Below the pieces are notes generated by a model. It had not been told where the DNA came from. It did not search any database and was given only the letters and a program-made list of their open reading frames with translations. A stretch of DNA of 64,000 nt from Pseudomonadota bacterium (GTDB lineage Bacteria > Bdellovibrionota_B > Oligoflexia > Silvanigrellales > Silvanigrellaceae), in contig JBDLRP010000048.1 in assembly GCA_039799905.1 (NCBI GenBank), forward strand, positions 10,024 through 74,023, in the 5' to 3' direction. The translations under genes were made by a program, and so were the position numbers. Below are positions 13,768 through 29,912 of this stretch, piece after piece. Position 1 is the first letter of the stretch, and every line of letters starts with the position of its first letter.

Positions 13768-14787
13768 TCAGACGGACAGCAATGCGGCGCCCAAACCACC
13801 TGCGGAATCGCCCAGTTGGTGCTTGTAGACCGGAACCAGACTGTCGGGCAAAAAGGTGTGCCGGGAAAGGATTTCAGACAAGCCCTGGTAAATTGCCGGT
13901 TGCAGGCTGATGCCGCCGCCGAGCACAAAATAATGCGGGTCAAAAACTGAGGTCAGACTGCCGAGGAATCGGCCCAAATCCGACCGGTAACGTGCAACTA
14001 CGGCCATTGCAGCCGGATCCGAGGCATCTGCTTTTTCAAAAATCTCACGCGCGCTCAGAGGCGCAGAGCCGAGCTGGCTATAGTGGCGCGTGGCCATGAG
14101 TGATTCCAACCCCGGGCCCGACAGATACTGCTCTGCACAGCCGGATTGACCGCAATAACACTGGTGACCGTCGCGGTAGAGTATTGTGTGTCCGAGCTCA
14201 CCGCCGCCGCCGCGGGCGCCCTGTAGTGTACGGCCGTTGATCACGATTCCGCCACCGCAACCGGTTCCGAGGATAATTCCCACAGCAGTCTGCGAATGCA
14301 CGCTGATCCCTGTTTTCTTTTCGTGGAAGAGACCTGCGCCACACAGTGCCTCCGCAAGAGCAAAACAATTGGCGTCATTTTCGGCGCGCAAAACCACTGA
14401 CTCGGGAAGAGCGGCTTTTTTGCGGACATCGCCGATCAGATCCTGATTCACCAAAACCATTGTGTTGCCATTGAGCATTCGTGATGTGCGCGGATCGATT
14501 GAGCCCGGCAGACCAAAGCCGATTCCCGACAACTGTTGCGCAGCCACTCCGGCTGCAGCACAAGTCGCGTCAATCAGGCGGGCCATCTTTTCGACGATCG
14601 ACTGATAACCTTTGTGCCGCTCCGTCGGTTCACGCAGGCGCGCAAGAACCTGACCATGCAACAAACCCTGCTGGGGATGTGCACAGGCAAAAACCTCACG
14701 TCCCTCGGCCGATTGAGCATCTTTGGAAAGGCGAAAAAGAGTCGCTTCTATCTTTGTTCCGCCAACGTCAAATCCCATCAAAAACAT
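13768..14787 (-). CDS. ROK family sugar kinase
   Basis: GFDVGGTK, ENDANCFALAE, GTGCGGG, GELGH, CYCGQSGCAE; no HTH domain. Confidence 0.9.
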   Translation of the reverse strand: MFLMGFDVGGTKIEATLFRLSKDAQSAEGREVFACAHPQQGLLHGQVLARLREPTERHKGYQSIVEKMARLIDATCAAAGVAAQQLSGIGFGLPGSIDPRTSRMLNGNTMVLVNQDLIGDVRKKAALPESVVLRAENDANCFALAEALCGAGLFHEKKTGISVHSQTAVGIILGTGCGGGIVINGRTLQGARGGGGELGHTILYRDGHQCYCGQSGCAEQYLSGPGLESLMATRHYSQLGSAPLSAREIFEKADASDPAAMAVVARYRSDLGRFLGSLTSVFDPHYFVLGGGISLQPAIYQGLSEILSRHTFLPDSLVPVYKHQLGDSAGGLGAALLSV

Positions 14788-14799
14788 ATCGTCTATTCC

Positions 14800-15471
14800 T
14801 TAATCCAATGAATCATTCAATGCGCTCAGATTTTCGAGCCACGCCATCACTGTGCGCACATCAGCCTGCGCGATGAGCCCCATCGACTGCGCAACGGTGA
14901 GAATTTTGTGAGTCTCGAAAAGAGGCTTGAAGGGAATCATCAGATGATCAAATTTTCTGTGAGACGAGGGAATGCCATGTGTGGTGACACTCGATGCCAG
15001 CACGATGTTTGTTTGAAGCTGGCGGAGCACCTCAACTGATTTCAAAAGGCTTTGTCCGGTTGTCAGCATATCGTCGACAACAAGGTGGGGTTTTGAGGGA
15101 GTGAATTCTCCTTCCACCATCTGCTGCAATCCATGCCCCTTGGGCTTTTGCCGGACGTAGACAAAATCCGAATCCCACAAATTCGCCAGACACATGGCGG
15201 GTGCGAGACCTGCGGTGGCAGTGCCGACACAGACAACATCACGCGGCCGCAGGCCCAACGCATTCAATTCGCGCTCAAGCACAGCCGCCCAAGCGGCAAC
15301 GAGAGCCTTGCGCAACGCCGGCGCCGTGAACGCACGACGGTGATCGAGATAAATCGGAGCCTTTGCCCCACTCGACAAAACAAACGGTGAGGTCGAATCC
15401 ACCTTGATGACACCATGCGCAAAAAATAAATCGACTATCGTGGATTCTCTGGCATCTGCACTGCCTGTCAT
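14800..15471 (-). CDS. pyrE: Orotate phosphoribosyltransferase
   Basis: FVLSSG..PIYLDHR, YVRQKPKGHG, PRPP motif VVDDMLTTGQS. Confidence 0.9.
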   Translation of the reverse strand: MTGSADARESTIVDLFFAHGVIKVDSTSPFVLSSGAKAPIYLDHRRAFTAPALRKALVAAWAAVLERELNALGLRPRDVVCVGTATAGLAPAMCLANLWDSDFVYVRQKPKGHGLQQMVEGEFTPSKPHLVVDDMLTTGQSLLKSVEVLRQLQTNIVLASSVTTHGIPSSHRKFDHLMIPFKPLFETHKILTVAQSMGLIAQADVRTVMAWLENLSALNDSLD

Positions 15472-16637
15472 AGTGAATTCCTGTTCTCAAATTTAACGTT
15501 CAGCACACGGGCGCATTCTGCCGCGAACTGCAAATTCCACATCGCACCGGTGGCAGCATGTACCACATCGACACCCGCATCGAGAAATCTTTGTACATCC
15601 TGAGCTGATGAAATCCCGCCGACGCCAATCAATGCAAAGTTGTCGGGCAGAAGTCCCAAGGACTGCCTGGCACTTTGCAATTGCGTGAGCAAGCGGAGTG
15701 ACTGCTCGCGAATGGCGCTTCCGCAGACTCCCCCATGTTCGGCTCCCGAACCCAAAGCACGGCTGCCGTCAGGTGTGACGATCGTCGCGCTGACGGTGTT
15801 GATGGCGCTCACTCCATGGGCATAGCGTGCAACGAGTTCTACTGTTTTAAGAATGTTGCCTTCGGGAACCACGCCCAACTTGATAATCAGACGAATGTCA
15901 GGAAAACCGCTGAGCCCTTCTGCGGCCGCGCGCAAGGTTTCTGCAAGGGCGTTAATATCTGTGTAAATCGGAGCACCTGATTCATTGGGACAGCTGACGT
16001 TCATTTCAAGGATCCGTCCGCCCTTCAGGTTGACACATTGTGCCGCCATTTGTGCGGTGCGGGATGTGTCATCGAGAAAGTCATGCCAGTGGGAGCCGGA
16101 CTCGCGGGTGCCCTGAAAACTCAGCACAGTGCAACGACCGCGCGCATATGCAAGCTCGTTCAGATGAGAATAATCATCGCCCCACTCCTTTGCCGACAAA
16201 CTCGGTACGCCGAAAGCGTTGGTGATGCTCAGGCGATCGCGCAGGTACGGATCGCGGAGGTCCTGCTGAGAGAGCGGCAACACCCGAACCTTTGGCCGCG
16301 GCTGCTGGCTGCCCTCTGTGCTGCTCAGTTGGCAATTCTCCTGTTCGCCGGCGGTCTCGAGGCGAAGGACGTTGGGCCACGGATGACTCTGCCATTTCCT
16401 GCTGCGCACTGTTTTGTAGACCGGCATGCAAAAACCGGCATTGAGTGCAACGTTCACGTAGGCAGAAGACAGCAGCGGGCCCGCGGGAATCCCGAGCGGG
16501 AGATAGAGCGGCAGACCGAGAAGCGAAAACCGCGGCTCACCGCTGAATTGACCACACGGAAAGACTCCGTCGCGATTCCACTCAACCGCGGGCCCGTTGC
16601 GGAGATTTTCGTCGTAGCTGAGCTGCGGATTGTACAT
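15468..16637 (-). CDS. pyrD: Class 1-like dihydroorotate dehydrogenase (divergent)
   Basis: PAGP, KT, TNAFG, EMNVSCPN (active-site Cys), KL, INT, GGVCG, IGVGGI; overlaps pyrE (ATGA). Confidence 0.75.
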   Translation of the reverse strand: MYNPQLSYDENLRNGPAVEWNRDGVFPCGQFSGEPRFSLLGLPLYLPLGIPAGPLLSSAYVNVALNAGFCMPVYKTVRSRKWQSHPWPNVLRLETAGEQENCQLSSTEGSQQPRPKVRVLPLSQQDLRDPYLRDRLSITNAFGVPSLSAKEWGDDYSHLNELAYARGRCTVLSFQGTRESGSHWHDFLDDTSRTAQMAAQCVNLKGGRILEMNVSCPNESGAPIYTDINALAETLRAAAEGLSGFPDIRLIIKLGVVPEGNILKTVELVARYAHGVSAINTVSATIVTPDGSRALGSGAEHGGVCGSAIREQSLRLLTQLQSARQSLGLLPDNFALIGVGGISSAQDVQRFLDAGVDVVHAATGAMWNLQFAAECARVLNVKFENRNSL

Positions 16638-17635
16638 CAGGCCAGTCCCAATACTCTGCGTCCGTTGTCGGTGGCAATCCGGATGAGTTCCTGTGAGTCG
16701 TAAAAGTGTGTCGCCTCAAGGAGCATTCTCAACTCGACCATCAGATCGCCGTCGGCGAATGGTTTGTAAATGTCGGCAATGTTGTCCGAGCCAATGGCAA
16801 CACACAACCCTGCGGGAATCATTTCGTCAATCGGCGTGATTGCGTTGTGGGTCGGTGTGAGAACCTCGTTGCGGCGTGCATCGAGCCATGCGCCCGGGCA
16901 GGCAACGAAACTCAGACCCGCATCGCGACAAAGTTTGTAGAGTTCCTGACGGTACGCCTTCGGCTGACAGCCGATACTGATTCCATGAACGGCCGTCACC
17001 TGACCTTCGACGCCGTGTCGAATGACAGCCCGTGCGAGCTGTTCTGTCTCGCGTTCCGAAGGGTCGTTGTTTTGATCGACGTGAACATGAACGCGCTTGC
17101 CGGTGCTTTTGGCTGCGCTTAAAAGTACATCCAAATGCTCGGCCTCGCGCCCTCGATCGGCACCCGGCAAGCCGCCAATCACGTCGACCTTTTCCAGGGC
17201 AGTCTCAAAATAGGAACGCGCCTCAGGGGCCAAGACACCTTTGAGTGTCTGGCACGCAAGCAGCAATTTCATTTGAAGCTTTTGTGCGGCGTAATCCTTC
17301 GCGCGTTCGGCGGCCTGCAAAGCGCGCGTTCCTGCAACGGGGTCGCAATCGACAAAAGTCAGGGCCAGGCGAACACCGAACTCATGCTGCGCACGCAGTG
17401 CCGATGTGATGTGCGCAAAGTATTCATCCTCACTCGTGACACGCTTCCAAGCATCAACCAACTGCCACTTTTCGTGCAACGTGCGCTCGACAGTGGCCGA
17501 CTGTTGGCCGGAATCCGGTAGGTCCGCTGGCGTCACCGAATAAGCACGATCAAAGTGCGCGTGCGCATTGACGAATCCGCCTGCAGAAATAATTTTCTGA
17601 CGCAACTGCGCCACGGGCATCCAGTACATCGTCAT
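16637..17635 (-). CDS. Cytosine-deaminase-like metal-dependent amidohydrolase with HxxQ instead of HxxE
   Basis: FVNAHAHFDR (HxH), HVHVDQ, TAVHG, GSDNIAD; short (332 aa), starting almost directly at the barrel. Confidence 0.85.
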   Translation of the reverse strand: MTMYWMPVAQLRQKIISAGGFVNAHAHFDRAYSVTPADLPDSGQQSATVERTLHEKWQLVDAWKRVTSEDEYFAHITSALRAQHEFGVRLALTFVDCDPVAGTRALQAAERAKDYAAQKLQMKLLLACQTLKGVLAPEARSYFETALEKVDVIGGLPGADRGREAEHLDVLLSAAKSTGKRVHVHVDQNNDPSERETEQLARAVIRHGVEGQVTAVHGISIGCQPKAYRQELYKLCRDAGLSFVACPGAWLDARRNEVLTPTHNAITPIDEMIPAGLCVAIGSDNIADIYKPFADGDLMVELRMLLEATHFYDSQELIRIATDNGRRVLGLA

Positions 17636-19293
17636 ACTCCGTTCATCAGTGCAGGTTTTTGCTGCTCCGTGCGCGCTGCTGATGGCTTGCGAACCTGAGT
17701 TTTGAGCCGCTCGCAGATATTGCTGAGCACATCATATTCACTGACCAGCTGCACACCGTTGATGACGCTCCACTTACGAATCTCGGTTCCGTCGCGGACT
17801 TCGACATTGTTGTTTTCGGGACTCATCACATTCACGATGAGGTCGAAACGATTCTGTTTGAGCAAATCAATTAAGTTGGGTTTCTTGCTTGCATCCGAAA
17901 CCTTGTAAACACAAACCGCAGAGACACCCGCCTGCTGCAAAACCGCATGGGTTCCTTCGGTTGCAAACAGCACAAAACCACTCTCGGCTAGCTTGGCCAC
18001 CAACGGCAGGAAGCGCTGCTTCTGTTCGACACTTCCAATCGAAATGAGCGCGTACCGCTCGGTCTCGCGTGCCATGCGCATCTGCATTGTATAGATTTCT
18101 GTGAACGCGGCCGACGCATTTTGGTTGAACGCATTGCTCTTCATGAAGGTTGCAAGCTTCTCGTCAAACAAGCTGTTGGGAGTTTCAACCGCCACAGCCT
18201 CGGCGCGGCCCTTGAACAGGCGAACGGTGACTGTACCGGTCACTTTTTCATTCACGGCGTCGATGTACATGTTGAGGTTGTGCATCAGCGGCTCATACCA
18301 CTGCGCTCCGTAGCAGAGGTATCCCCACTTTTGATCCACCAGCGTTTTGAATTCATTTTCCTGACGCGTGCAGACGTATTTTTCGAGTGTCTCGTGCGCT
18401 CGGACAATAACGCTGGCAGCGGGAGCTTCGTAGATTCCGCGCACTTTCAGGCCGACAACACGGTCTTCGATATGATGGGTGACACCAACGCCGTGACGCG
18501 CGCCGAGTTCGTTGAGCTGCGCAATCAGCGGCACGAGTCCCATGTCCTGACCATTGAGCTGGACGGGCAGACCTTTCAGGAAGCCAATCGTGACTGTGGA
18601 AGCTTCATTCGGCGTGTCCTCGATTGGCTTGCAAATCTGCAAAATATTTTGCAGCGGAGGAACCAATGCGGGATTTTCGATTTCTCCGCCCTCGGCGGAA
18701 ATTCCCCACATGTTGTCGTCGTAGCTGTATGGCGAATCCGCAGTCTGCTTGACAGGAATATTGTGCTTGCGTGCGTATTCGAGTTCTTCGTCGCGGCCCA
18801 TGCCCCACTCACGCACAGGTGCGATGATTTTCATTTCTGGCGCAAGCGTCAGGATACTTCCCTCAAGGCGCACCTGATCGTTGCCTTTGCCGGTGCAGCC
18901 GTGAGCAATACAGTCACAGCCTTCAGCACGCGCGACATCGACGGCAAGCTTTGCGAGAAGTGGACGTCCGAGCGGCGTGGCAAGATGATAATCACCCTGA
19001 TAACGCGCGTTGGCCTTGATCCCTTTTGCGAGATATTCGTATGCAAATGTATTTTTCGCGTCGACAACAACTGCCTTCACAGCACCAAGGCGAAGAGCCT
19101 TTTGGCGAATTTCCTCGAGATTATCCGCCTGCTGGCCGATGTCGATTGTTAGTGCGATGACCTCGGCCTGATACTCATCCTGAATCCATTTGAGCATCAC
19201 GCTCGTATCCAATCCACCCGAATACAACAGGACCACTTTACGGATTTCGCCCTTGCGGCCTTCGTAAGAGGAAACTTTCATGTAATTGTTCAT
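17632..19293 (-). CDS. argG: Argininosuccinate synthase fused to a C-terminal CarB-type MGS domain
   Basis: YSGGLDTS, HGCTGKGNDQVR, YSYDDN..GISAEGG, EDRVVGLKVRGIYEAP; from about residue 414: ALISI...FATEGT...PNLIDLL...DLIVN...DGTEIRK; ATG 19293 with GGAGGT SD. Confidence 0.92.
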   Translation of the reverse strand: MNNYMKVSSYEGRKGEIRKVVLLYSGGLDTSVMLKWIQDEYQAEVIALTIDIGQQADNLEEIRQKALRLGAVKAVVVDAKNTFAYEYLAKGIKANARYQGDYHLATPLGRPLLAKLAVDVARAEGCDCIAHGCTGKGNDQVRLEGSILTLAPEMKIIAPVREWGMGRDEELEYARKHNIPVKQTADSPYSYDDNMWGISAEGGEIENPALVPPLQNILQICKPIEDTPNEASTVTIGFLKGLPVQLNGQDMGLVPLIAQLNELGARHGVGVTHHIEDRVVGLKVRGIYEAPAASVIVRAHETLEKYVCTRQENEFKTLVDQKWGYLCYGAQWYEPLMHNLNMYIDAVNEKVTGTVTVRLFKGRAEAVAVETPNSLFDEKLATFMKSNAFNQNASAAFTEIYTMQMRMARETERYALISIGSVEQKQRFLPLVAKLAESGFVLFATEGTHAVLQQAGVSAVCVYKVSDASKKPNLIDLLKQNRFDLIVNVMSPENNNVEVRDGTEIRKWSVINGVQLVSEYDVLSNICERLKTQVRKPSAARTEQQKPALMNGV

Positions 19294-19325: not shown

Positions 19326-19353
19326 AAAAAAAAACCCGCTCAACGCGGGTTTT
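19326..19353 (-). terminator. Intrinsic terminator / possible attenuator just upstream of argG
   Basis: Minus strand reads AAAACCCGC-GTTGA-GCGGG followed by 9 T. Confidence 0.75.
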
Positions 19354-19432
19354 AAAGTTCAATTAAATGAGGGGAAACGCTGCCCTTGCTTATGTGCGAC
19401 GCTCTTCAACCAACACACTGGCATACGAAACA

Positions 19433-19464: not shown

Positions 19465-19484
19465 AAGGGAGCGGGCTTCGATTG

Positions 19485-20786
19485 TCAAGACGCCTTCTTG
19501 ATTGAAGACTCGTCTTTCGCAGGCTCTACTGCTTCTTTTTTCTCACCTGCCGGAATCGGCATCGGAATGGACGACGCCGGCGGCGGATCGACTGCCGGGA
19601 ACTGCGCCTTGATCTCGAGAATCTCATCAAGATTATCGAAAAAGATATCGACAATATCTGGATCAAAGTGACTGCCGCTGCAGTTACGCAGTTCGTCGAA
19701 GACTTTGTCAATCGGCCACGATTCTTTGTACACGCGCCGCGAACACAATGCGTCGAAGACGTCGGCCAGTGCAACCACACGCCCTTCCGCAGGAATGTCC
19801 TTGCCCTTGAGGCCGCGCGGGTATCCGCTGCCATCCCAACGTTCATGGTGTGTGTACGCAATGACTGCACCAACCTGGAGGAAGGGCGAATCCGCACCGC
19901 GCAGAACTTCGTATCCCTTCACGGTGTGCAGTTTCATGATTTCAAATTCTTCGGGCGTGAGTCGTCCAGGCTTTTTGAGCACCGCGTCAGGGGTAGATAT
20001 CTTACCCACATCATGCAGCATGGCTGCCAGCCGCATCACTTCACAAGAGTTCTCATCGTATCCCAAATGTTTATACAACAATACACTGTATCGACTCATG
20101 CGCTCGATGTGTCCGCCGGTGTCGGTGTCGTGATATTCAGATGCCTTCACGAACTTCTTCACCGTTTCGATACGTGACTGCCGCAAGTCTTCGGCCATGC
20201 GCAAATTACGCAGAACTACGCCGCATTGGCTGGAGAGTGCACGCAGATAGGATTCCACACGACTCGGAAACGGCGAAACCTCGCCGCTAAAATTTTCACC
20301 GGTGAGGTGATTGATAAGCTGCAGAACACCCAAAACATTCCCGCGTGAATCGCACATCGGTATCACCAGCATCGAACGGCTTCGATAGTTGGTCATAATG
20401 TCGAAAGATGGATTGAAACTGAACGGCGATTCCGGCGGTAAATTATAGACATCTTGAATATTGAGCGGCGTCCGCGAAGATGCGGCAAACCCTGCAGCTG
20501 TCTTGAGGTCAATCGGAAGAGTGTAATTCTTGAGTGCGGCCTTGACCCCACGCGCTTCCAAGACGCGGTTGCGGGTAAGCACGAATCTCAGCTGGTTCCC
20601 GTCTGCCTCATAAACCGTACAGCCTTCGCAATTGCCCATAATCAGTGCCGTTTCAGCCATCAGGCTGAGCAGCTCACTGGCGTCATCCATCTCACTCAGA
20701 GCGAGTCCGCTCTTCACAAGAAGATTAAGGAAATCAATGGAGTTCTCAGCGTCCTGCGCCAAAACATTCTTTGTGTTCTCGGACAT
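19485..20786 (-). CDS. GAF + HD-GYP c-di-GMP phosphodiesterase
   Basis: GAF (FNPSFD..TNYRSRSMLVIPM...GVLQLIN), AAMLHDVGK, HHERWDGSGYP, ADVFDAL; ATG 20786 with GGAG SD. Confidence 0.92.
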   Translation of the reverse strand: MSENTKNVLAQDAENSIDFLNLLVKSGLALSEMDDASELLSLMAETALIMGNCEGCTVYEADGNQLRFVLTRNRVLEARGVKAALKNYTLPIDLKTAAGFAASSRTPLNIQDVYNLPPESPFSFNPSFDIMTNYRSRSMLVIPMCDSRGNVLGVLQLINHLTGENFSGEVSPFPSRVESYLRALSSQCGVVLRNLRMAEDLRQSRIETVKKFVKASEYHDTDTGGHIERMSRYSVLLYKHLGYDENSCEVMRLAAMLHDVGKISTPDAVLKKPGRLTPEEFEIMKLHTVKGYEVLRGADSPFLQVGAVIAYTHHERWDGSGYPRGLKGKDIPAEGRVVALADVFDALCSRRVYKESWPIDKVFDELRNCSGSHFDPDIVDIFFDNLDEILEIKAQFPAVDPPPASSIPMPIPAGEKKEAVEPAKDESSIKKAS

Positions 20787-21045: not shown

Positions 21046-22656
21046 ATGATTGCGCGTTACAGCCGCCCACAGATGTCCAAGCTATGGTCCGAGGAAGCAA
21101 AATACGTCTCATGGTCCCGCGTCGAGCGGGCTCACCTCGAAGGTCTTGTCGAACGCCGCGGAGTTCCCGCAGCTGTGCTCAATGCATTCGACCATGCGAT
21201 TCAATCCACTCATCCAGACGACTACCAAAGGCGCGAGCTTGAGACTGGCCACGACGTGATTGCTTACGTCGCCGAAGTCGGTGCTGCGATGGGCGACTTT
21301 GGACGTTGGCTGCATCAAGGTCTGACGAGTTCCGACGTGCTCGACACCGCACTCAGCCTGCGCCTGCGTGAAACTCTCGAACTCCTCGACAAGCCATTGA
21401 CACAGTTGCGAACGGCCCTGGCAACACATGCATTCCGTCATAATGCGACTCCCGTGATGGGCCGCACTCACGGTATCCATGCAGAGCCGCTTTCATTCGG
21501 ACAAGTTCTCGCAGGCCATTTCGGCGAATTCCAGCGCGCACATTTGTCGCTGCTTGAGGCGCGCAAAGCCTGCTCGACCGGTAAACTTTCGGGAGCAGTC
21601 GGACAATATTCGCAACTGCATCCTGAGTATGAATCACACGTTTTGAACAAATTGAATCTGACGGCGGAACCCGTCGCGACTCAGGTGATTCCCCGTGACC
21701 GCATCCTCCGTGTCGGACAGGCGTGCGAAAGCCTCGCCAATGCAATCGACAGGTTTGCGCTCAACATGCGTCACTGGGCACGCACCGAATTGCAGGAAGT
21801 ACTTGAACCCTTCGGTGAAAAACAAAAGGGCAGTTCGGCAATGCCGCACAAGAAGAACCCCGTGCTGGCAGAAAACCTGTCAGGGCTTGCGCGTACTGTA
21901 CGCGGGTATGTGCAGATGCTCGGACAAAACACCAGCCTCTGGCACGAACGCGACATTTCGCATAGCAGCGTGGAGCGCATTGCTCTGCCTGACCTTTTTG
22001 TCACGCTCGATTTCATGACCGCCCGCTGCGCTGAGCTGATCGAAAAAATGGTTGTTCAGCCCGAAGTGATGAAGAGGAACCTCGACCGCCTGGGCGGATT
22101 GTGGGCCAGCCAGTCGGTGCTGACGCAGCTGACCAACGCCGGAATGAACCGCACCAGCGCTTACGAGCTGGTGCAAAAAATCGCGCTGCCGCTCAACATG
22201 CAGGCTGCGCGTGAAAGCCTGCCCGCAGACGCCTTTTTGAAAGCACTCGAGGCCCAGCCGGCGGTTGTCGACCTCATCGGCCGAGAACAACTCCGCAGTC
22301 TGTTCAATCTTGAAAAGTTTGTCGCACACACTGCCGGACGTTTTCTCAATGTGTTTGGAATTACGCCGGACGAGGTCACCCGTCTGCATGGCGGCAGAGC
22401 CGACGCCAAAACGATTCCTGCCTTGCAGAGGGTTTATCAGGTGACGGTCGCGCTGAATGCCGACGTGCTCGATACGGAAGCCAAAACAATTGAAGAACAC
22501 ATGCAGGCGCAGGGCCTGACGGCCCGCCTGAACCGTTCGAAAGTCTTTACCATCAGCCTTCCCGACGAAGATGAAAAAACGAATTTGTTACGTTATGTCT
22601 CGTCAGTGCTCAGAAACGAGGTCATGGAGTCCATTCACGTGGAGGTCATTCAATGA
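21046..22656 (+). CDS. purB: Adenylosuccinate lyase with C-terminal PurS-like domain
   Basis: MIARY, HDV, GLTSSD, GRTHGIHAEP, GSSAMPHKKNP, WHERDISHSSVER; last ~75 aa resemble PurS. Confidence 0.93.
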   Translation: MIARYSRPQMSKLWSEEAKYVSWSRVERAHLEGLVERRGVPAAVLNAFDHAIQSTHPDDYQRRELETGHDVIAYVAEVGAAMGDFGRWLHQGLTSSDVLDTALSLRLRETLELLDKPLTQLRTALATHAFRHNATPVMGRTHGIHAEPLSFGQVLAGHFGEFQRAHLSLLEARKACSTGKLSGAVGQYSQLHPEYESHVLNKLNLTAEPVATQVIPRDRILRVGQACESLANAIDRFALNMRHWARTELQEVLEPFGEKQKGSSAMPHKKNPVLAENLSGLARTVRGYVQMLGQNTSLWHERDISHSSVERIALPDLFVTLDFMTARCAELIEKMVVQPEVMKRNLDRLGGLWASQSVLTQLTNAGMNRTSAYELVQKIALPLNMQAARESLPADAFLKALEAQPAVVDLIGREQLRSLFNLEKFVAHTAGRFLNVFGITPDEVTRLHGGRADAKTIPALQRVYQVTVALNADVLDTEAKTIEEHMQAQGLTARLNRSKVFTISLPDEDEKTNLLRYVSSVLRNEVMESIHVEVIQ

Positions 22657-23390
22657 CCAGACAAAAGGCCGCCGTTCTGCAATTTCCGGGAACCAACTGC
22701 GATCAGGACACACTGCGCTGGCTTGCGCGCAATCTTGATCTCGATGTCTCCTTTGTCAGAAATCAGGAAGACATCGAAAAACGCCCCCCTGGACACACCG
22801 CCGTGATTATTCTCCCAGGGGGGTTTTCATTTGGCGATTATCTGCGCGCAGGGGCGCTGGCGGCGCGCTCGCCGCTGATGGACTGGGTGCGCCGCGAGGC
22901 TGCTGCGGGTGTCGCTGTGCTCGGCATCTGCAACGGTTTTCAGATTCTCTGTGAATCCGGTCTTCTGCCGGGTGCGCTTGCGCCCAACGTCATCCGCCAG
23001 CACGTGCATGAGTTTGTCACCATCCATGCAGAAATCTCGGTAGCCTCGCGCTGGACTCCAAAGCTTACGAGCGGCCAGTTGCTGACTTTGCCGATCTCGT
23101 GCGGCATGGGTAACTTCGTCGCACCACGAAAGGCGGACAGCTTTCAAACCCTCTTCCGCTATACACTCAACATTCTGGGCAGCAGCGAGAGCATCGCAGG
23201 AATATCCAATCCCGAAGGAAACATTGTCGGCATGATGCCGCACCCAGAACGCGCGAGTGACCCAACTTTGGGAGCATCGGATGGATTGTTCATGCTGGAC
23301 GCGTTGGCAACCCAGCTAGGCATACCAGTCAGAGCGGACAGTCCGCTCGACCACTGGCGCAAAACCAAACACGCCCACAACACACACTGA
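22653..23390 (+). CDS. purQ: Phosphoribosylformylglycinamidine synthase glutaminase subunit
   Basis: FPGTNCD, PGGFSFGDYLR, GICNGFQIL, GMMPHPER. Confidence 0.95.
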   Translation: MTRQKAAVLQFPGTNCDQDTLRWLARNLDLDVSFVRNQEDIEKRPPGHTAVIILPGGFSFGDYLRAGALAARSPLMDWVRREAAAGVAVLGICNGFQILCESGLLPGALAPNVIRQHVHEFVTIHAEISVASRWTPKLTSGQLLTLPISCGMGNFVAPRKADSFQTLFRYTLNILGSSESIAGISNPEGNIVGMMPHPERASDPTLGASDGLFMLDALATQLGIPVRADSPLDHWRKTKHAHNTH

Positions 23391-23414
23391 CGTTTGTCGC
23401 CGAGGTTGAATTCA

Positions 23415-25901
23415 ATGTCTTCAAGTCCGCAAACACCAGCAGAAGTTGGCAAAGAAGAAAAGAAGCAGCTCGAACTCGCGCAGGGATTCGGCCTGTCCGC
23501 AGATGAATTTAAACGGCTCAGAGAACTTCTCGGGCGCAGCCCGTCACTCGAAGAAATCGCCGTGACCGGTGCGCTGTGGAGCGAGCACTGCTCCTACAAG
23601 TCATCACGCGTCCATCTCTCGCGCTTTCACACCCAGGAACCTTGGGTTTTGCAGGGCCCGGGTGAAAATGCCGGGATTGTCGAGATCGCCGAAGGCGTCG
23701 GACTCGCCTTCAAAATGGAGAGTCACAACCACCCCAGCTACATTGAACCTTATCAGGGCGCGGCGACCGGTGTTGGCGGAATTCTCCGCGACGTGTTCTG
23801 CATGGGCGCGCGCCCGATCGCAAACCTGAACTGCCTGCGCTACGGCGAAGGCGACTACAACGCACATCTTCTGAAGCATACCGTGCGCGGAATCGGCGAT
23901 TACGGCAACTCGGTGGGTGTTCCCACAGTCGGCGGCCAGACACGATTCCATCACGGCTACAGCAAGAACATTCTCGTCAACGCTTTCACCGCAGGACTCG
24001 TCAAAAGCGATGCCATTTTCCGCGGTAAACTGCAGAACGACTCAACTCAGCCGCGTCAGCAAGTTGCAAGCCGACTTCTCCCCGCGCAGCCGATGACAGC
24101 CGAAAAGCGCAGCGAACTTTTTCCTTCCGGTGCCAACCTGCTGTTGTATTTCGGAAGTGCAACTGGCCGTGACGGCGTTCATGGCGCAACCATGAGTTCC
24201 GACACCTTCGACGACGCGTCGGCGGCACTCAAACCGACCGTGCAGGTCGGAGACCCGTTTGCAGAGAAAAAACTGCTCGAGGTGACGCTTGAATTGCTTG
24301 AAAAGAAACTGGTCGTCGGTCTGCAGGACATGGGCGCGGCAGGACTCACTTCGAGCGGAGTCGAAATGGCCGGCCGTTCGGGATGCGGAGTCGTTATAGA
24401 TTTGAACCTCATTCCTGCACGCACGGCGCGGCTCAAGGCATTCGAATATCTATTGTCAGAGTCGCAGGAGCGCATGCTGTGTGCCGTCACACCCGAAAAG
24501 GCTCCTGCGGTGATTGAGCTTTGCAGGCAGCATCAAGTGGCAGCTGCGGTGATCGGCTCGGTCAACGACACGGGCGAATTCATCTGTCTGCACAACGACG
24601 AAGTCGTGTGTGTTCTGCCGGTCGGAATCCTCACCGACAACGCACCGAAGTACACCTGGCCGCTTCAGGATCGCGACGCATATCTTCGTGAACACGCGCG
24701 CATCGAACGTCCGCTGCCGGCTGATTCCGGTCTGAAAATTGGACTGCCGGAAGAAACGCGAAAATCCCTCGCCGGCGTCTTGGAATCGGCGACAACGAGT
24801 TTTGCTCAGGCATGGCCAGTTCTGCAAAAACACCTTCCCGAACTTATGTCACTGCCAGTGCACGCATCGAAAGATCCATTGACGCGGCATTACTGTTCGA
24901 CCGTGCAGGGCAACACGATTGCAGGCTGCCAGACGCCGCGCTCGAGCGCCGCTGCTCTCGTCAGGCTAGATGAAGCCTTTGTTCCTGAATCGGCTCACGA
25001 TACATTCGCACGCAACGCTCCGGTTGTTGCTCTCGCCGCGGGTTGTCAGGAACGCTGGATTGAAATTGACCCGCTGCATGGCGCCGCGCAAAGCACCCTG
25101 CTTCTCTCACGCAGGATCGTAGCGAGCGGCGGACGCCCGCTGGCCATGACCGACTGCCTGAACTTCGGAAGCCCGCGTCAGCCGGCCGTCATGCGGCAGA
25201 TCTCGGACGCCATCGACGGCATCAATTCAGTGGCAAAAACGATGCGCATTCCGATCGTCAGCGGCAACGTCAGCCTCAACAACCAGACAGGAACCACACC
25301 CATTCCGCCGACACCGATGGTGGGAATTGCCGGTGTCGTCGATTCCTGCCAGCGGGTGGTCGGAGATTTGCCTTCGCTCACGAAAAACAACTCAACTTCT
25401 CAGCATCGTCTTTATTGGTTGTGCGCGAAAAACACCGATTCATTGACCAATTTCGCCATGTCGGAAATGGCATGGAACGTGTTTCACAAAAACAACGGGC
25501 CCGTTCCGCAAGCCGACTTCGCCTCGGAAATGCAGATGAACGAATTCCTCGCTGAGCTCAACCAGCAACAGCACTTGAACAGCTGCGCGGTCGCCGGATG
25601 CGGCGGTGTGCTGATGACTTTGCTGACCATGGCCGCACGCACACAGTCAGCACTTGCGTTCACAAAAGAGTGCCTCGCACTGCATGTGCAGACGCTGTTC
25701 GCCGAAGGGCAAGCGGGCGTCATTGTATCTGGCCCTGCATTAGCTGATCAGCGAATTGCAGGACAGGCCGATGCGCGCGGCTTGAGGCTTGTACCTTTGG
25801 CCGACCTCATCTCCTGCGACAGCCTCGCTCCAACCGAGTCGCAAGTTTGGAAGGCAGCATCGGCGCAATACTCCGACTCTCTCAAATCTTTTTTCAGGTA
25901 A
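23415..25901 (+). CDS. purL: Phosphoribosylformylglycinamidine synthase subunit PurL
   Basis: WSEHCSYKSS, KMESHNHPS, GAATGVGGI, QDMGAAG, SESQERM, DCLNFG, SGNVSL; ATG 23415 follows GAGGT. Confidence 0.96.
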   Translation: MSSSPQTPAEVGKEEKKQLELAQGFGLSADEFKRLRELLGRSPSLEEIAVTGALWSEHCSYKSSRVHLSRFHTQEPWVLQGPGENAGIVEIAEGVGLAFKMESHNHPSYIEPYQGAATGVGGILRDVFCMGARPIANLNCLRYGEGDYNAHLLKHTVRGIGDYGNSVGVPTVGGQTRFHHGYSKNILVNAFTAGLVKSDAIFRGKLQNDSTQPRQQVASRLLPAQPMTAEKRSELFPSGANLLLYFGSATGRDGVHGATMSSDTFDDASAALKPTVQVGDPFAEKKLLEVTLELLEKKLVVGLQDMGAAGLTSSGVEMAGRSGCGVVIDLNLIPARTARLKAFEYLLSESQERMLCAVTPEKAPAVIELCRQHQVAAAVIGSVNDTGEFICLHNDEVVCVLPVGILTDNAPKYTWPLQDRDAYLREHARIERPLPADSGLKIGLPEETRKSLAGVLESATTSFAQAWPVLQKHLPELMSLPVHASKDPLTRHYCSTVQGNTIAGCQTPRSSAAALVRLDEAFVPESAHDTFARNAPVVALAAGCQERWIEIDPLHGAAQSTLLLSRRIVASGGRPLAMTDCLNFGSPRQPAVMRQISDAIDGINSVAKTMRIPIVSGNVSLNNQTGTTPIPPTPMVGIAGVVDSCQRVVGDLPSLTKNNSTSQHRLYWLCAKNTDSLTNFAMSEMAWNVFHKNNGPVPQADFASEMQMNEFLAELNQQQHLNSCAVAGCGGVLMTLLTMAARTQSALAFTKECLALHVQTLFAEGQAGVIVSGPALADQRIAGQADARGLRLVPLADLISCDSLAPTESQVWKAASAQYSDSLKSFFR

Positions 25902-25907
25902 TCCAGA

Positions 25908-27362
25908 ATGTGCGGAATTTTTGCCCTGACAAATCACACTGAAGCTGCCCACATGGCATTTTTGGGTCTTTTTTCCCTGCAGCACCGTGGTCAGGAAAGC
26001 GCCGGACTTGCTTCGCTGCGTGACGGCGATCTCAATGTGCACCGCGCAGCAGGTTTGGTGAGCGACGTTTTCACACCCGAGACACTCAACCGTCTCAAGG
26101 GCACTGCAGCTTTGGGCCATGTGCGATACAGCACCGCCGGCGGCGAGTCGGCTTCCAACATTCAGCCGCTGGCCGCGCGTGTCAACGGCGTCAAGGTTGC
26201 GCTTGCGCACAACGGAAATCTAGTGAACGCACCAGAATTGCGGGACGACCTCGAAAGGCGTGGCGCAATTTTTCAGGGGACCGCCGACACTGAAATCATA
26301 CTGCACCTGCTCGCACAGGCCCCCGGTGCCGATTTGGGCGCAAAACTCAAGCACGTCAGCGGACTGCTTGAGGGTGCTTTCTCGCTCGTCCTGCTCACTC
26401 CCACTCATCTTTATGCTTGTGTCGACGCGCTCGGCTATCGGCCGCTGTCACTTGGGCGTTTTTCCGACAGCACAGGCAGCGCAGCAACTTGGGCAGTCAG
26501 CAGCGAGACGTGCGCATTTGAGCTGGTGGGAGCAAAATTCGAACGCGACATTTTGCCCGGCGAGATGATCGAAATTCGCCTCCATGACGGCTTAATCAAA
26601 ACGAGCCATCTGCCGGATACGCGCACATCCGCCGGTGAAAATTTACGCCGCTGTGTGTTCGAACAAATCTATTTCGCGCGACCCGACTCCCAGCTTTGGG
26701 GACAGTCCACATTTTTGTTTCGTGAGACTCTCGGAGCAGAACTCGCCAAACAGGCTCCAGCTGAAGCTGACTTGGTCATACCCATTCCTGACTCGGGTGT
26801 TCCCATGGCGATGGGCTACGCGCGTGCATCAGGCATACCCTACGCAATGGGACTCATCCGCAATCACTACGTCGGCCGCACGTTCATCGAACCGACACAA
26901 ACTGTGCGCAACTTCCGCCTCAGGCTCAAACTGAGCCCACTGCGTCATATCATCGAGGGCAAGCGTCTGGTGGTTGTGGACGACAGCATTGTCCGCGGTA
27001 CGACCTCACGCCGGATTGTCGAATTGCTGCGCGAGGCAGGAGCACGCGAGGTGCACATGCGCATCGGTTCACCGCCAGTCAAATTTCCCTGCTTCTATGG
27101 TATCGACACACCCAAACGCAGAGACCTTTTGGCACAGCAGATGAATCTCGACCAAATGCGCGAAACACTGCAAGCGGATTCGCTGGCGTATCTTGCAACC
27201 GAAACCCTGCATTCGATGGCCACCCCAGCGGCCCGCTGCGCAAACGGCAGCAGTGGATTTTGCGATTCATGCTTCAGCGGCAATTACGCGGACGGCTTCG
27301 CTCAGCGTCGGTTGAGCGAAGAACAAACAACGTCGGTAAAAAAAATTGAGGTGACACCATGA
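25908..27362 (+). CDS. purF: Amidophosphoribosyltransferase
   Basis: N-terminal [49 protein letters not shown]. Confidence 0.97.
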
Positions 27363-27886
27363 GTCATGTCGGAATTGTCATGGGAAGTGAGTCCGACATG
27401 GACACCATGAATGCGGCAGTGGAAATCCTCAAAGCAGCCGGTGTCGAATTTGAATGCACGGTCGTGAGTGCACACCGCACTCCCGAGAGATTGTTTCAGT
27501 ATGCCAAGAATGCCGAGGCCCGAAAACTCAAAGTGATCATTGCTGGTGCAGGTGGCGCTGCACACTTGCCGGGGATGATCGCCAGTCTCACCACTCTGCC
27601 GGTACTCGGCGTACCGGTGCAGAGCAAGACACTCAACGGTCTCGACAGCCTGCTGTCCATTGTGCAGATGCCGGCAGGTGTTCCCACCGCGACATTTGCC
27701 ATCGGCACTGCAGGCGCGCGCAACGCTGCGTTGTTTGCGATTCAAATTCTTGCCCTCGCCGACGAGCGGCTGAGCCGTTGGAATCACCAGCACAAAAAAC
27801 ACATCGAAGGACAGGCTCTGGAACAGGCGGCACGGGTTGAGTCGGTCGCGGGAGTGCCGTTCCGCTGGGAACCTGGAGAGTCATGA
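27359..27886 (+). CDS. purE: N5-CAIR mutase
   Basis: [32 protein letters not shown]. Confidence 0.98.
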
Positions 27887-29082
27887 CTGAGACGCCGGCG
27901 CAAAAAACAATTGGCATTCTCGGCGGCGGACAATTGGGGCTGATGCTCAGTCAGTCGCTGGCAGACCTCGGCGCACAGGTACGGATTCTTGATCCCCAGC
28001 CCGATTGTCCCGCTGCATTGCGTACGGCTTTTTCACGTACAGCATCGTTCGCCGATGACGATGCCCTTTGTGAATTTTTTCTTGCCTGCGATCGCGTGAC
28101 CTACGAATTCGAACACATCCCAATCGCCGCCCTGCGCAGGGTACTCGACAAGACGGATTCCCATCACAAACTCTGGCCGTCGCTGAGTGTTCTGGAAAAC
28201 TCGCAGAACCGTGTTGCCGAAAAAATCGCTCTGGCAAAAGCCGATGCGCCCGTCGCAGAATGGATCGAAATCTGCAGTGTGGAAGACTTGCGTCAACACA
28301 AGCCGCAATGGCTTGGCAGGCAACGTGCGGGAATTCTCAAAACAGCACGCGGCGGCTATGACGGAAAAGGGCAATGGCGCCTTTCCAGCGAAGAGAATTG
28401 GAATAGTGCGATTGCAGAGTTGACCAGCCGAGAAGAGCTGTTTCCTCTTGTACTCGAAGAGAAGTGTCAACTGCTGGGTGAGCTCAGCGTGATTGTCGGG
28501 CGTCACCCCGAACACGGCGTTGTCACTCTTCCGGCAGTCGAAAACATCCACGTCGACGGAATTCTCGACGTCACTTTTTATCCGCCGCGGCTGCCTGCGC
28601 ACATCTGCGTCGAGGCAAAACAGATTGCCGAGCATGTGGCACAGCAATGGAATGTTCACGGTTTGCTCACCGTCGAGTTTTTTGTGGTTGAGAATTCAGC
28701 CGGGACAAAACTGCTCGCAAACGAAGTTGCGCCGCGCCCGCACAACTCCGGCCACGTCAGCCGCCGCAGTCTGTCTCGCAGCCAGTTTGATTTGCTCGCT
28801 CACATTCTTCTCGACCAGCCCTGTCAAATCAGCGAGACGCAAACCGGCGTGGTCTGGGCAATGTTGAACACACTCGGCGATCTATGGGGCAAAGGAAGTG
28901 CATTTTGGCCGCATCAGCTGACCTCGCATTCCGCAGTCTGCGAGGCGATGCTTTACGGCAAACCCGAAGTTCGCCGCGGACGCAAGATGGGCCATGTCAT
29001 TTTGCGCGGCAATACCCATTCTGAGCTCAACAAACACATTCAGTTTTTACGTTCAACGTTTCCCGATGACAAAGGTGTCTGA
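27883..29082 (+). CDS. purK: N5-CAIR synthase
   Basis: [39 protein letters not shown]. Confidence 0.96.
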
Positions 29083-29084
29083 AC

Positions 29085-29912
29085 ATGAGTACAGCTGCCA
29101 TCCGCCCTACCGGCGCGCGCATTCTCTGCCTTGGTTTCGATCCGATGCCGAGGTCCGGTCTGCAAAAAGACTGGCTCGACTGCTTTGACAATCACCTCGA
29201 GTTTTTTGAACTGCTCGATCGCAAGCCGCAGTGGGTCAAACTCAATCTGGCTTTTTTCCTGCGCTGGGGCCGGCTCGGTATCGATAAACTCGAGCTTGCC
29301 TGCGAAACGCTCGGTGACAAGACAAACATTCTGCTCGACGGCAAATTTGGTGAAATCGGCAATAGCCTCAGCCATTATCTCGACTTCGCCTTTGAACACC
29401 TCAAGGCCGACGGTGTGACAGTCAATCCTTTCATGGGTGAACACATCATCGGCTCGGCGCTGCAAAAAGCACTGAGTCTGCGCGGCGCATCTTCGCGAGT
29501 CTTCGTCCTCGGAGCCACCAGCGAATTTCCGCAAAAAAAACTGGCCGAGCTGCAAAACTCATACAGCGCAATCGCGGAGGCTTGTGAGGACGCACACCTC
29601 ACGCTCGACCCAAGTGGTTCACTGGGCGCGCACCTTGGTCTGGTCGTCGGTGCAAACCGACAGGACGCCATGACCAATGAAGTCATTTTGCGCGGACAGA
29701 TGCCGCTGCTAATGCCCGGAATCGGCGCGCAGGGTGTATCGCTCGAGTCGGCAGTCAAACGCACGGCACCGCTTGCGCAGGAAATTATTTTTCCCGTGAG
29801 TCGTGCCATCTGCGAGGGCGGCAATCTCAAGCCAATCGAGATGCAACATAAATTTCAACAGATGCAGAACGAATTGGATTCACTTCTCAGTCAGCCGCGA
29901 GGTCATTCATGA
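29085..29912 (+). CDS. pyrF: Orotidine-5'-phosphate decarboxylase (divergent, type 2-like)
   Basis: LCLGFDP, VKLNLAFF, LDGKFGEIGNS, TVNPFMG, GLVVGA, PGIGAQG, SRAI. Confidence 0.85.
   Translation: MSTAAIRPTGARILCLGFDPMPRSGLQKDWLDCFDNHLEFFELLDRKPQWVKLNLAFFLRWGRLGIDKLELACETLGDKTNILLDGKFGEIGNSLSHYLDFAFEHLKADGVTVNPFMGEHIIGSALQKALSLRGASSRVFVLGATSEFPQKKLAELQNSYSAIAEACEDAHLTLDPSGSLGAHLGLVVGANRQDAMTNEVILRGQMPLLMPGIGAQGVSLESAVKRTAPLAQEIIFPVSRAICEGGNLKPIEMQHKFQQMQNELDSLLSQPRGHS

Follow-up and report, generated by a model that had tools for sequence, protein, structure and literature searches.

The textbook entry to pyrimidines consists of PyrB and PyrC, which deliver dihydroorotate to PyrD, PyrE and PyrF, and dihydroorotases of types I and II carry the substrate-binding motif HxHxR. 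A known connection with arginine is the arginine synthetase pathway of Thermococcus kodakarensis, which according to the accessible text of its report converts arginine to carbamoyl phosphate and still employs PyrB and PyrC (PMC13260591). The cockroach symbiont Blattabacterium is among the bacteria that lack the two textbook enzymes. In the accessible parts of the reports on this organism, its dihydroorotate is ‘supposed to be supplied by the host’ (PMC3287516), argH alone has been lost from a retained arginine pathway, with argininosuccinate called a ‘dead end metabolite’ (PMC3296467), and the loss of ArgH is ascribed to a host lyase (PMC9603385).

The gene described here lies in a window of 64,000 nucleotides, the whole stretch of DNA that was analysed, from a Silvanigrellaceae genome (contig JBDLRP010000048.1). 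It encodes an amidohydrolase whose closest solved relatives, both by sequence and by fold (Foldseek), are the cytosine deaminase CodA and AtzC (N-isopropylammelide isopropylaminohydrolase). As described in the accessible text on AtzC, this enzyme has His219 in place of CodA Glu217 and Asn304 in place of Asp314, His249 is its proposed proton shuttle, and it frees an alkylamine from the ring carbon of a cyclic amidine (PMC4577212). Because AtzC, by the same account, works with His219 at that position, a missing glutamate alone does not rule out deaminase-type chemistry.

The amidohydrolase and its operon

The operon runs in the order argG-MGS, amidohydrolase, pyrD-like, pyrE-like and ROK kinase, with gene ends that abut or overlap except ahead of the ROK gene. 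The relevant features of the window are:

13768..14787, minus strand: ROK kinase, found behind the operon in close relatives only
14800..15471, minus strand: orotate phosphoribosyltransferase-like gene (pyrE); matched best by PyrE models, though under their cut-offs
15468..16637, minus strand: divergent dihydroorotate dehydrogenase-like gene; over the cut-off of Pfam DHO_dh (54.9 bits), under every NCBIfam PyrD cut-off
16637..17635, minus strand: PRK06886-family amidohydrolase, 332 aa; its start overlaps the argG stop
17632..19293, minus strand: ArgG-MGS, an argininosuccinate synthase of 553 aa with its ATG at 19293; over Pfam and NCBIfam cut-offs
about 17632-18057, minus strand: MGS-like domain of the CPS allosteric type, C-terminal in ArgG-MGS
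19326..19353, minus strand: intrinsic terminator with a 9-bp stem and a 9-U run, about 40 nt ahead of the argG start
19359..19424, minus strand: leader ORF of 21 codons with one Arg codon and an SD-like AGGGG; it stops just short of the terminator
19483..19488, minus strand: -35-like TTGACA, in the same arrangement in loci L001, L002, L004 and L005
29085..29912, plus strand: pyrF (OMP decarboxylase), at the end of a purine gene cluster

The ROK kinase is probably a passenger of the operon, and pyrF completes the route to UMP. The purine cluster that ends with pyrF spans 21046-29912 (purB-like, purQ, purL, purF, purE and purK by their translations), and a GAF/HD-GYP gene separates it from the argG-MGS operon. 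ArgG-MGS scores 498 bits against an argininosuccinate synthase family cut-off of 334, and when aligned to T. thermophilus 1j1z it keeps the residues that we take to form the citrulline/aspartate site, with Pro at the S89 position. The nearest relatives of its MGS domain are the allosteric domains of CPS. Five other proteins carry MGS fused directly to the amidohydrolase, and ArgG is found without MGS in loci L120 and L184.

The amidohydrolase is a full-length member of NCBIfam NF005365/PRK06886 (377.8 bits against a cut-off of 340, residues 9-331), a ‘hypothetical protein’ model that itself carries no function, and its named homologues are 63-86% identical to it. It remains under the cut-offs of the NCBIfam CodA models (81-93 bits versus 403-483), its seven NCBIfam matches include no DHOase model, and no DHOase is among the Foldseek matches listed. 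The dihydroorotase motif HxHxR, seen in four of five fetched PyrC proteins, is absent from it, the corresponding stretch reading HAHFDR. Judged by sequence, the protein belongs to PRK06886 and not to CodA, AtzC or the DHOases.

The preliminary description had reported a change of HxxE to HxxQ, with H25/H27, H185 and the later His and Asp retained, in a protein devoid of an N-terminal beta domain, and these points are borne out. The ORF translation contains HxH, H185-V-D-Q188, H217 and D284-N285, with codons at 17563-61 (H25), 17557-55 (H27), 17083-81 (H185), 17074-72 (Q188) and 16987-85 (H217), and D284 within GSDN. Only 24 residues precede HxH, and the AlphaFold model (pLDDT 97.1, pTM 0.94) has a starting helix that passes at once into the barrel, with no beta-sandwich. 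The barrel matches CodA (E. coli 1k6w, Klebsiella 4r7w) at TM 0.82-0.83, and the mononuclear His/His/His/Asp site is in common, since the CodA ligands HxH, His and Asp correspond to H25, H27, H185 and D284; His246 and Gln156 also have equivalents, H217 and Q129. The amidohydrolase differs from CodA, however, in having Gln for Glu217 (HVDQ aligns on HCDE of 4r7w), Asn for Asp314 and Tyr for Trp319, in lacking the beta-sandwich, and in being ~90 aa shorter at 24-28% identity. AtzC (TM 0.78, Foldseek) resembles it in having no catalytic Glu and in the Asn that follows the metal Asp, with N285 matching Asn304 (GSDN versus ASDN). AtzC nevertheless carries His219 (HIHD) where the present protein reads HVDQ, is 403 rather than 332 aa long, and has a beta domain and a xenobiotic substrate.

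The HxxE glutamate is missing throughout the family as sampled. Gln occupies its position in 121 of 121 sequences (the query and its best 120 phmmer matches) and in all 74 loci picked by a family HMM without any DQ pattern; a tally of 204/204 was also obtained, but this is partly circular because its search patterns included DQ. Among distant representatives, the Gln forms have at most 39 residues ahead of HxH in 52 of 59 cases, 62 in one and at least 130 in six, five of which are MGS fusions, and the Glu forms have at least 51 in 35 of 41. Gln188 is therefore the mark of a clade rather than a sporadic change. K56, W57, K64, Q129, H263 and N264 are likewise invariant in the family, and R229 is nearly so. 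Four relatives with short N-termini (P0157, P0176, P0179 and P0203) retain HxDE; two of them were placed in the tree, where they adjoin the Gln clade.

The source genome (completeness 93.8%) has one carbamoyltransferase, an OTC adjoining carB, and lacks PyrB. ArgG-MGS is its single ArgG, and ArgH is absent. Besides the PRK06886 member it encodes three amidohydrolases, one chlorohydrolase-like, one allantoinase-like and one HutI-like. Compared with five fetched PyrC proteins, the genome yields a match in the allantoinase-like gene alone (25-35% identity), which is the sole DHOase-like match and is without the Arg of HxHxR. With this gene content, argininosuccinate is therefore left without a known sink, and dihydroorotate without a known source.

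Carriers of the family in bacteria and viruses

Among 86 genomes of the phylum with completeness of at least 90%, the PRK06886 family is present in 23 of 23 Silvanigrellaceae (family f1) and in 0 of 63 others, and carbamoyltransferase matches at ATCase level (at least 180 bits) are present in 0 of 23 and 48 of 63, respectively; the best f1 match, at 149 bits, is at OTC level. In the Flavobacteriales (n = 386), the amidohydrolase occurs in 58 genomes and PyrB in 314, with both in none and neither in 14, such that PyrB is found in 0/58 carriers versus 314/328 non-carriers. These exclusion counts include kin that are not independent, given that f1 is one family and that small genomes of 0.5-0.6 Mb dominate the Flavobacteriales carriers (49 of 58; the other nine are of 1.3-3.1 Mb), and they come from surveys that miss some weak members and from drafts that are incomplete. 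The two 0.5-0.6 Mb carriers that were placed in the tree cluster with the named Blattabacterium.

The Patescibacteria sample (n = 251, 12 carriers) gives a different picture. PyrB is found in 3/12 carriers versus 39/239 others (Fisher p 0.43); therefore, no exclusion is apparent there, which counts against an argininosuccinate route. So does the co-occurrence of the amidohydrolase with PyrB and PyrC in G014, G029, G208, G269 and G331. The PyrC model TIGR00856 finds a weak match in only four of 70 carriers, all four with PyrB, and these together with G208, whose PyrC the model missed, possess complete PyrB and PyrC. A lone Amidohydro_1 match, compatible in span and frame length with the PRK06886 gene, was obtained for 21 of 44 carriers, by a search that missed the amidohydrolase gene in three genomes. 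The copy at L014, from a genome titled Methylococcaceae, clusters with viral rows and has neighbours in common with phage-like L288 and L220; this locus may come from a viral contig that was binned with the genome.

The neighbourhoods comprise 73 genome loci (43 plus 30 fetched separately), some from near kin or the same genome. The downstream genes are retained, with pyrD, pyrE or pyrF at most 3.5 kb from the amidohydrolase in 38/73 loci. In G025, a complete Blattabacterium genome, both pyrD and pyrF are present; no pyrD was found in draft G146 and no pyrF in draft G149. Other carriers use ordinary DHODHs. Apart from the operon genes already named, nothing is conserved across the operons of the loci compared.

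An argininosuccinate-making neighbour lies within 3.5 kb in 55/73 loci, this being ArgG in 44 and ArgH in 11, with neither in 18. The ArgH loci are those of four Patescibacteria, L020 and six of the nine larger Flavobacteriales. In a quick tree, three or more changes of the ArgG/ArgH label are required by starred branches, which may represent one gain and two losses. G000, G119, G120 and G127 have ArgG without ArgH, and G125 has ArgH plus a second, MGS-less ArgG. The single-contig genomes G410 and G577 have ArgH without ArgG, and we infer that ArgH there can therefore only run backwards. In Patescibacteria, ArgG is present in 9/12 carriers versus 13/239 others. Argininosuccinate is the one metabolite common to ArgG and ArgH, and its skeleton, Asp-NH-C(=NH)-NH-Orn, contains every ring atom of dihydroorotate.

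Many carriers have no carbamoyltransferase (28/43) or no CarB (28/44), and thus citrulline for ArgG must come by uptake or from a candidate deiminase; this gap, like the 18 loci with neither ArgG nor ArgH nearby, tells against an argininosuccinate route. An ArgZ-like guanidino-modifying enzyme is encoded near argG-MGS or the amidohydrolase in L016, L017, L029, L032, L036, L042 and L186. In all seven, Asp replaces the dihydrolase Asn that the source genome’s copy (L146:5013-5924) retains, and we take this Asp form to be a possible arginine deiminase supplying citrulline. The accessible text of PMC11659421 holds nothing on the Asn/Asp point.

Relatives also occur in 61 viral loci (L219-L279), mostly alone among replication genes (ThyX, DNA polymerase III alpha), and the ESM Atlas contains virus-dominated clusters. 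Near the 61 copies, argH is found in two cases, pyrD in two, pyrF in one and PurA in four, and purA, purB and GMP reductase genes stand beside copies among L270, L271, L274 and L275. That viral copies mostly stand alone tells against the route, yet a lone viral gene fits the use of host argininosuccinate, with the caveat that the PurA/PurB neighbours leave adenylosuccinate as another candidate substrate. In metagenome contigs L314, L330, L341, L342, L348 and L350, the amidohydrolase is followed by an ADI-like gene and a CtlX-like gene.

A candidate route from argininosuccinate and its alternatives

The preliminary description had proposed that the enzyme is not a cytosine deaminase and instead fills the gap between ArgG and DHODH by amidine cleavage or cyclisation. 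The conserved operons, the absence of PyrB and apparent absence of PyrC, and the switch between ArgG and ArgH as neighbours all argue for this proposal. We suggest, with a probability of roughly 0.7, that the amidohydrolase converts argininosuccinate to dihydroorotate and ornithine, bypassing PyrB and PyrC. That argininosuccinate serves as the entry to pyrimidines in some form, whether by this direct reaction or by way of carbamoyl-aspartate or orotate, appears very probable from the genomic data. A literature search, mostly of papers available without subscription, found no account of an argininosuccinate-to-dihydroorotate route or enzyme.

From the observed gene content, neighbourhoods, motifs and fold, we infer a substrate, a product and an order of steps. 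In the source genome, CarAB and OTC would make citrulline, ArgG-MGS would join this to aspartate, and the amidohydrolase would free ornithine for recycling and pass dihydroorotate to PyrD, PyrE and PyrF. Other carriers would run ArgH backwards, making argininosuccinate from arginine and fumarate. Argininosuccinate would close, on the enzyme or spontaneously, to a six-membered cyclic acylguanidine, which is a known non-enzymatic anhydride of the compound; a literature search for its cyclic anhydrides found no paper. On this cyclic form the enzyme would probably work like AtzC, with a mononuclear metal-bound hydroxide attacking C2 and expelling ornithine, and with H217 as proton shuttle as proposed for AtzC His249. 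The guanidine would already be protonated and no Glu would be required, hence Gln188. K56, K64, H263 and R229 could hold the carboxylates.

Such a route would hand the same dihydroorotate to PyrD, PyrE and PyrF as PyrB and PyrC do, but the ring would derive from argininosuccinate, an ArgG or ArgH step would be spent, ornithine would be released, and the ArgH form would need no carbamoyl phosphate. In common with the T. kodakarensis pathway, as far as the accessible account of the latter goes, it would draw pyrimidine atoms from arginine, and it would differ in bypassing PyrB and PyrC. We consider it reasonably probable that Silvanigrellaceae, Blattabacterium, other Bacteroidota and many Patescibacteria employ a second de novo pyrimidine route by a single barrel enzyme, including its variant with reverse ArgH, and that phages and giant-virus-like contigs have the enzyme by itself to tap host argininosuccinate. 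If true, this would be a different way of building the pyrimidine ring, and metabolic models would need to be corrected for many small-genome bacteria currently read as pyrimidine auxotrophs. It would also give one explanation for both Blattabacterium puzzles as the accessible texts present them, the dihydroorotate assigned to the host (PMC3287516) and the argininosuccinate dead end (PMC3296467). The description of Blattabacterium nucleotide machinery as complete, in the accessible text of PMC2768785, counts against the route.

The strongest competitor, which we nonetheless regard as unlikely, keeps argininosuccinate as the starting point and divides the work differently. The amidohydrolase would only hydrolyse argininosuccinate to carbamoyl-aspartate and ornithine, with an unrecognised cyclase closing the ring, or the divergent DHODH would oxidise the cyclic intermediate before the amidohydrolase frees orotate. 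This accommodates all the genomic evidence for argininosuccinate entry, the CodA/AtzC fold does perform simple amidine hydrolysis, and the DHODH of the window is indeed divergent. An allantoinase-like cyclic amidohydrolase is available in the source genome, and the MGS domain has a weak NCBIfam match to PurH, its fold being also that of IMP cyclohydrolase. However, the operons conserve no other gene, many small carriers have no visible second amidohydrolase, other carriers have ordinary DHODHs, and MGS is closest to CPS allosteric domains and missing from ArgG in L120 and L184. The non-canonical dihydroorotase that the preliminary description offered as its alternative, acting on carbamoyl-aspartate from some other route, is now disfavoured and seems very improbable. 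The gene does sit directly ahead of pyrD, and PyrC is absent, but PyrB is missing too, all five PyrB-bearing carriers have a normal PyrC of their own, the HxHxR motif and any DHOase match among the models or the Foldseek matches listed are lacking, and the link to ArgG/ArgH would be left unexplained.

Two readings would take the enzyme out of pyrimidine synthesis altogether. A salvage nucleobase deaminase of the cytosine, isocytosine or creatinine type, permitting the loss of de novo synthesis, would suit the cytosine deaminases as closest solved structures, the invariant Q129 and the viral copies among replication genes. With Glu217 and Asp314 replaced, scores far under the CodA cut-offs, and uracil salvage giving no cause to retain pyrD, pyrE and pyrF in the operon or ArgG/ArgH as neighbours, we give this reading very little credence. 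An arginine-catabolic or amidine-clearing enzyme, acting on argininosuccinate, arginine, citrulline or adenylosuccinate without being a pyrimidine source, is also improbable, if slightly less so. It would be in keeping with the ADI-like and CtlX-like genes 3' of the amidohydrolase in six metagenome loci, the PurA, PurB and GMP reductase neighbours in some viruses and the five genomes with complete PyrBC, yet it cannot account for the 0/58 and 0/23 overlap with PyrB or for the operons with pyrD, pyrE and pyrF. Direct formation of dihydroorotate from argininosuccinate remains the reading we prefer.

The leader of the operon and associated genes

In the attenuation model for pyrBI, UTP is sensed through a translated leader ORF that runs up to an intrinsic terminator, with more read-through at low UTP. 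The argG-MGS leader resembles this E. coli layout, with its leader ORF running up to the intrinsic terminator ahead of the first gene. Of the loci with argG as first gene of the operon, 29 of 30 have a terminator with a run of 7-9 U ahead of argG, and of those with an internal argG 0 of 8 do; both lists include non-independent kin, and one locus without a usable start was dropped from each. In 22 of the 29 terminator-bearing leaders an ORF stops at the terminator, versus 5.3 predicted by shuffling. Arg codons number 0-2 in most of these ORFs, many of which finish on U-rich codons. The leader scored above threshold with no Rfam family.

We regard the leader terminator as a putative UTP-sensing attenuator; the hairpin may instead end the upstream gene, because that gene is on the same strand in the window. 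The TTGACA is followed after 17 nt by a weak -10-like hexamer, TACCCC, at 19465-19460, and although a consensus scan did not detect this pair, it may function as the promoter. Nucleotide feedback would additionally act through the MGS domain.

Several other genes and loci deserve mention. In G000, carB seems to be split over two contigs, with carA and the carB start on C35 and the remainder by argF on C26. At L146:104-1588 (minus strand), an ORF that by eye is pseudouridine-synthase-like carries a long C-terminal tandem repeat of ~15 residues. Pyrimidine operons at L018:4334-5821 (minus strand) and L191:11471-12970 (plus strand) include a paralogue of the AsnRS catalytic domain that has no anticodon domain and is fused to MGS. 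It is possibly a nucleotide-regulated enzyme that interconverts Asn and Asp, and in L191 it lies directly 3' of argG-MGS.
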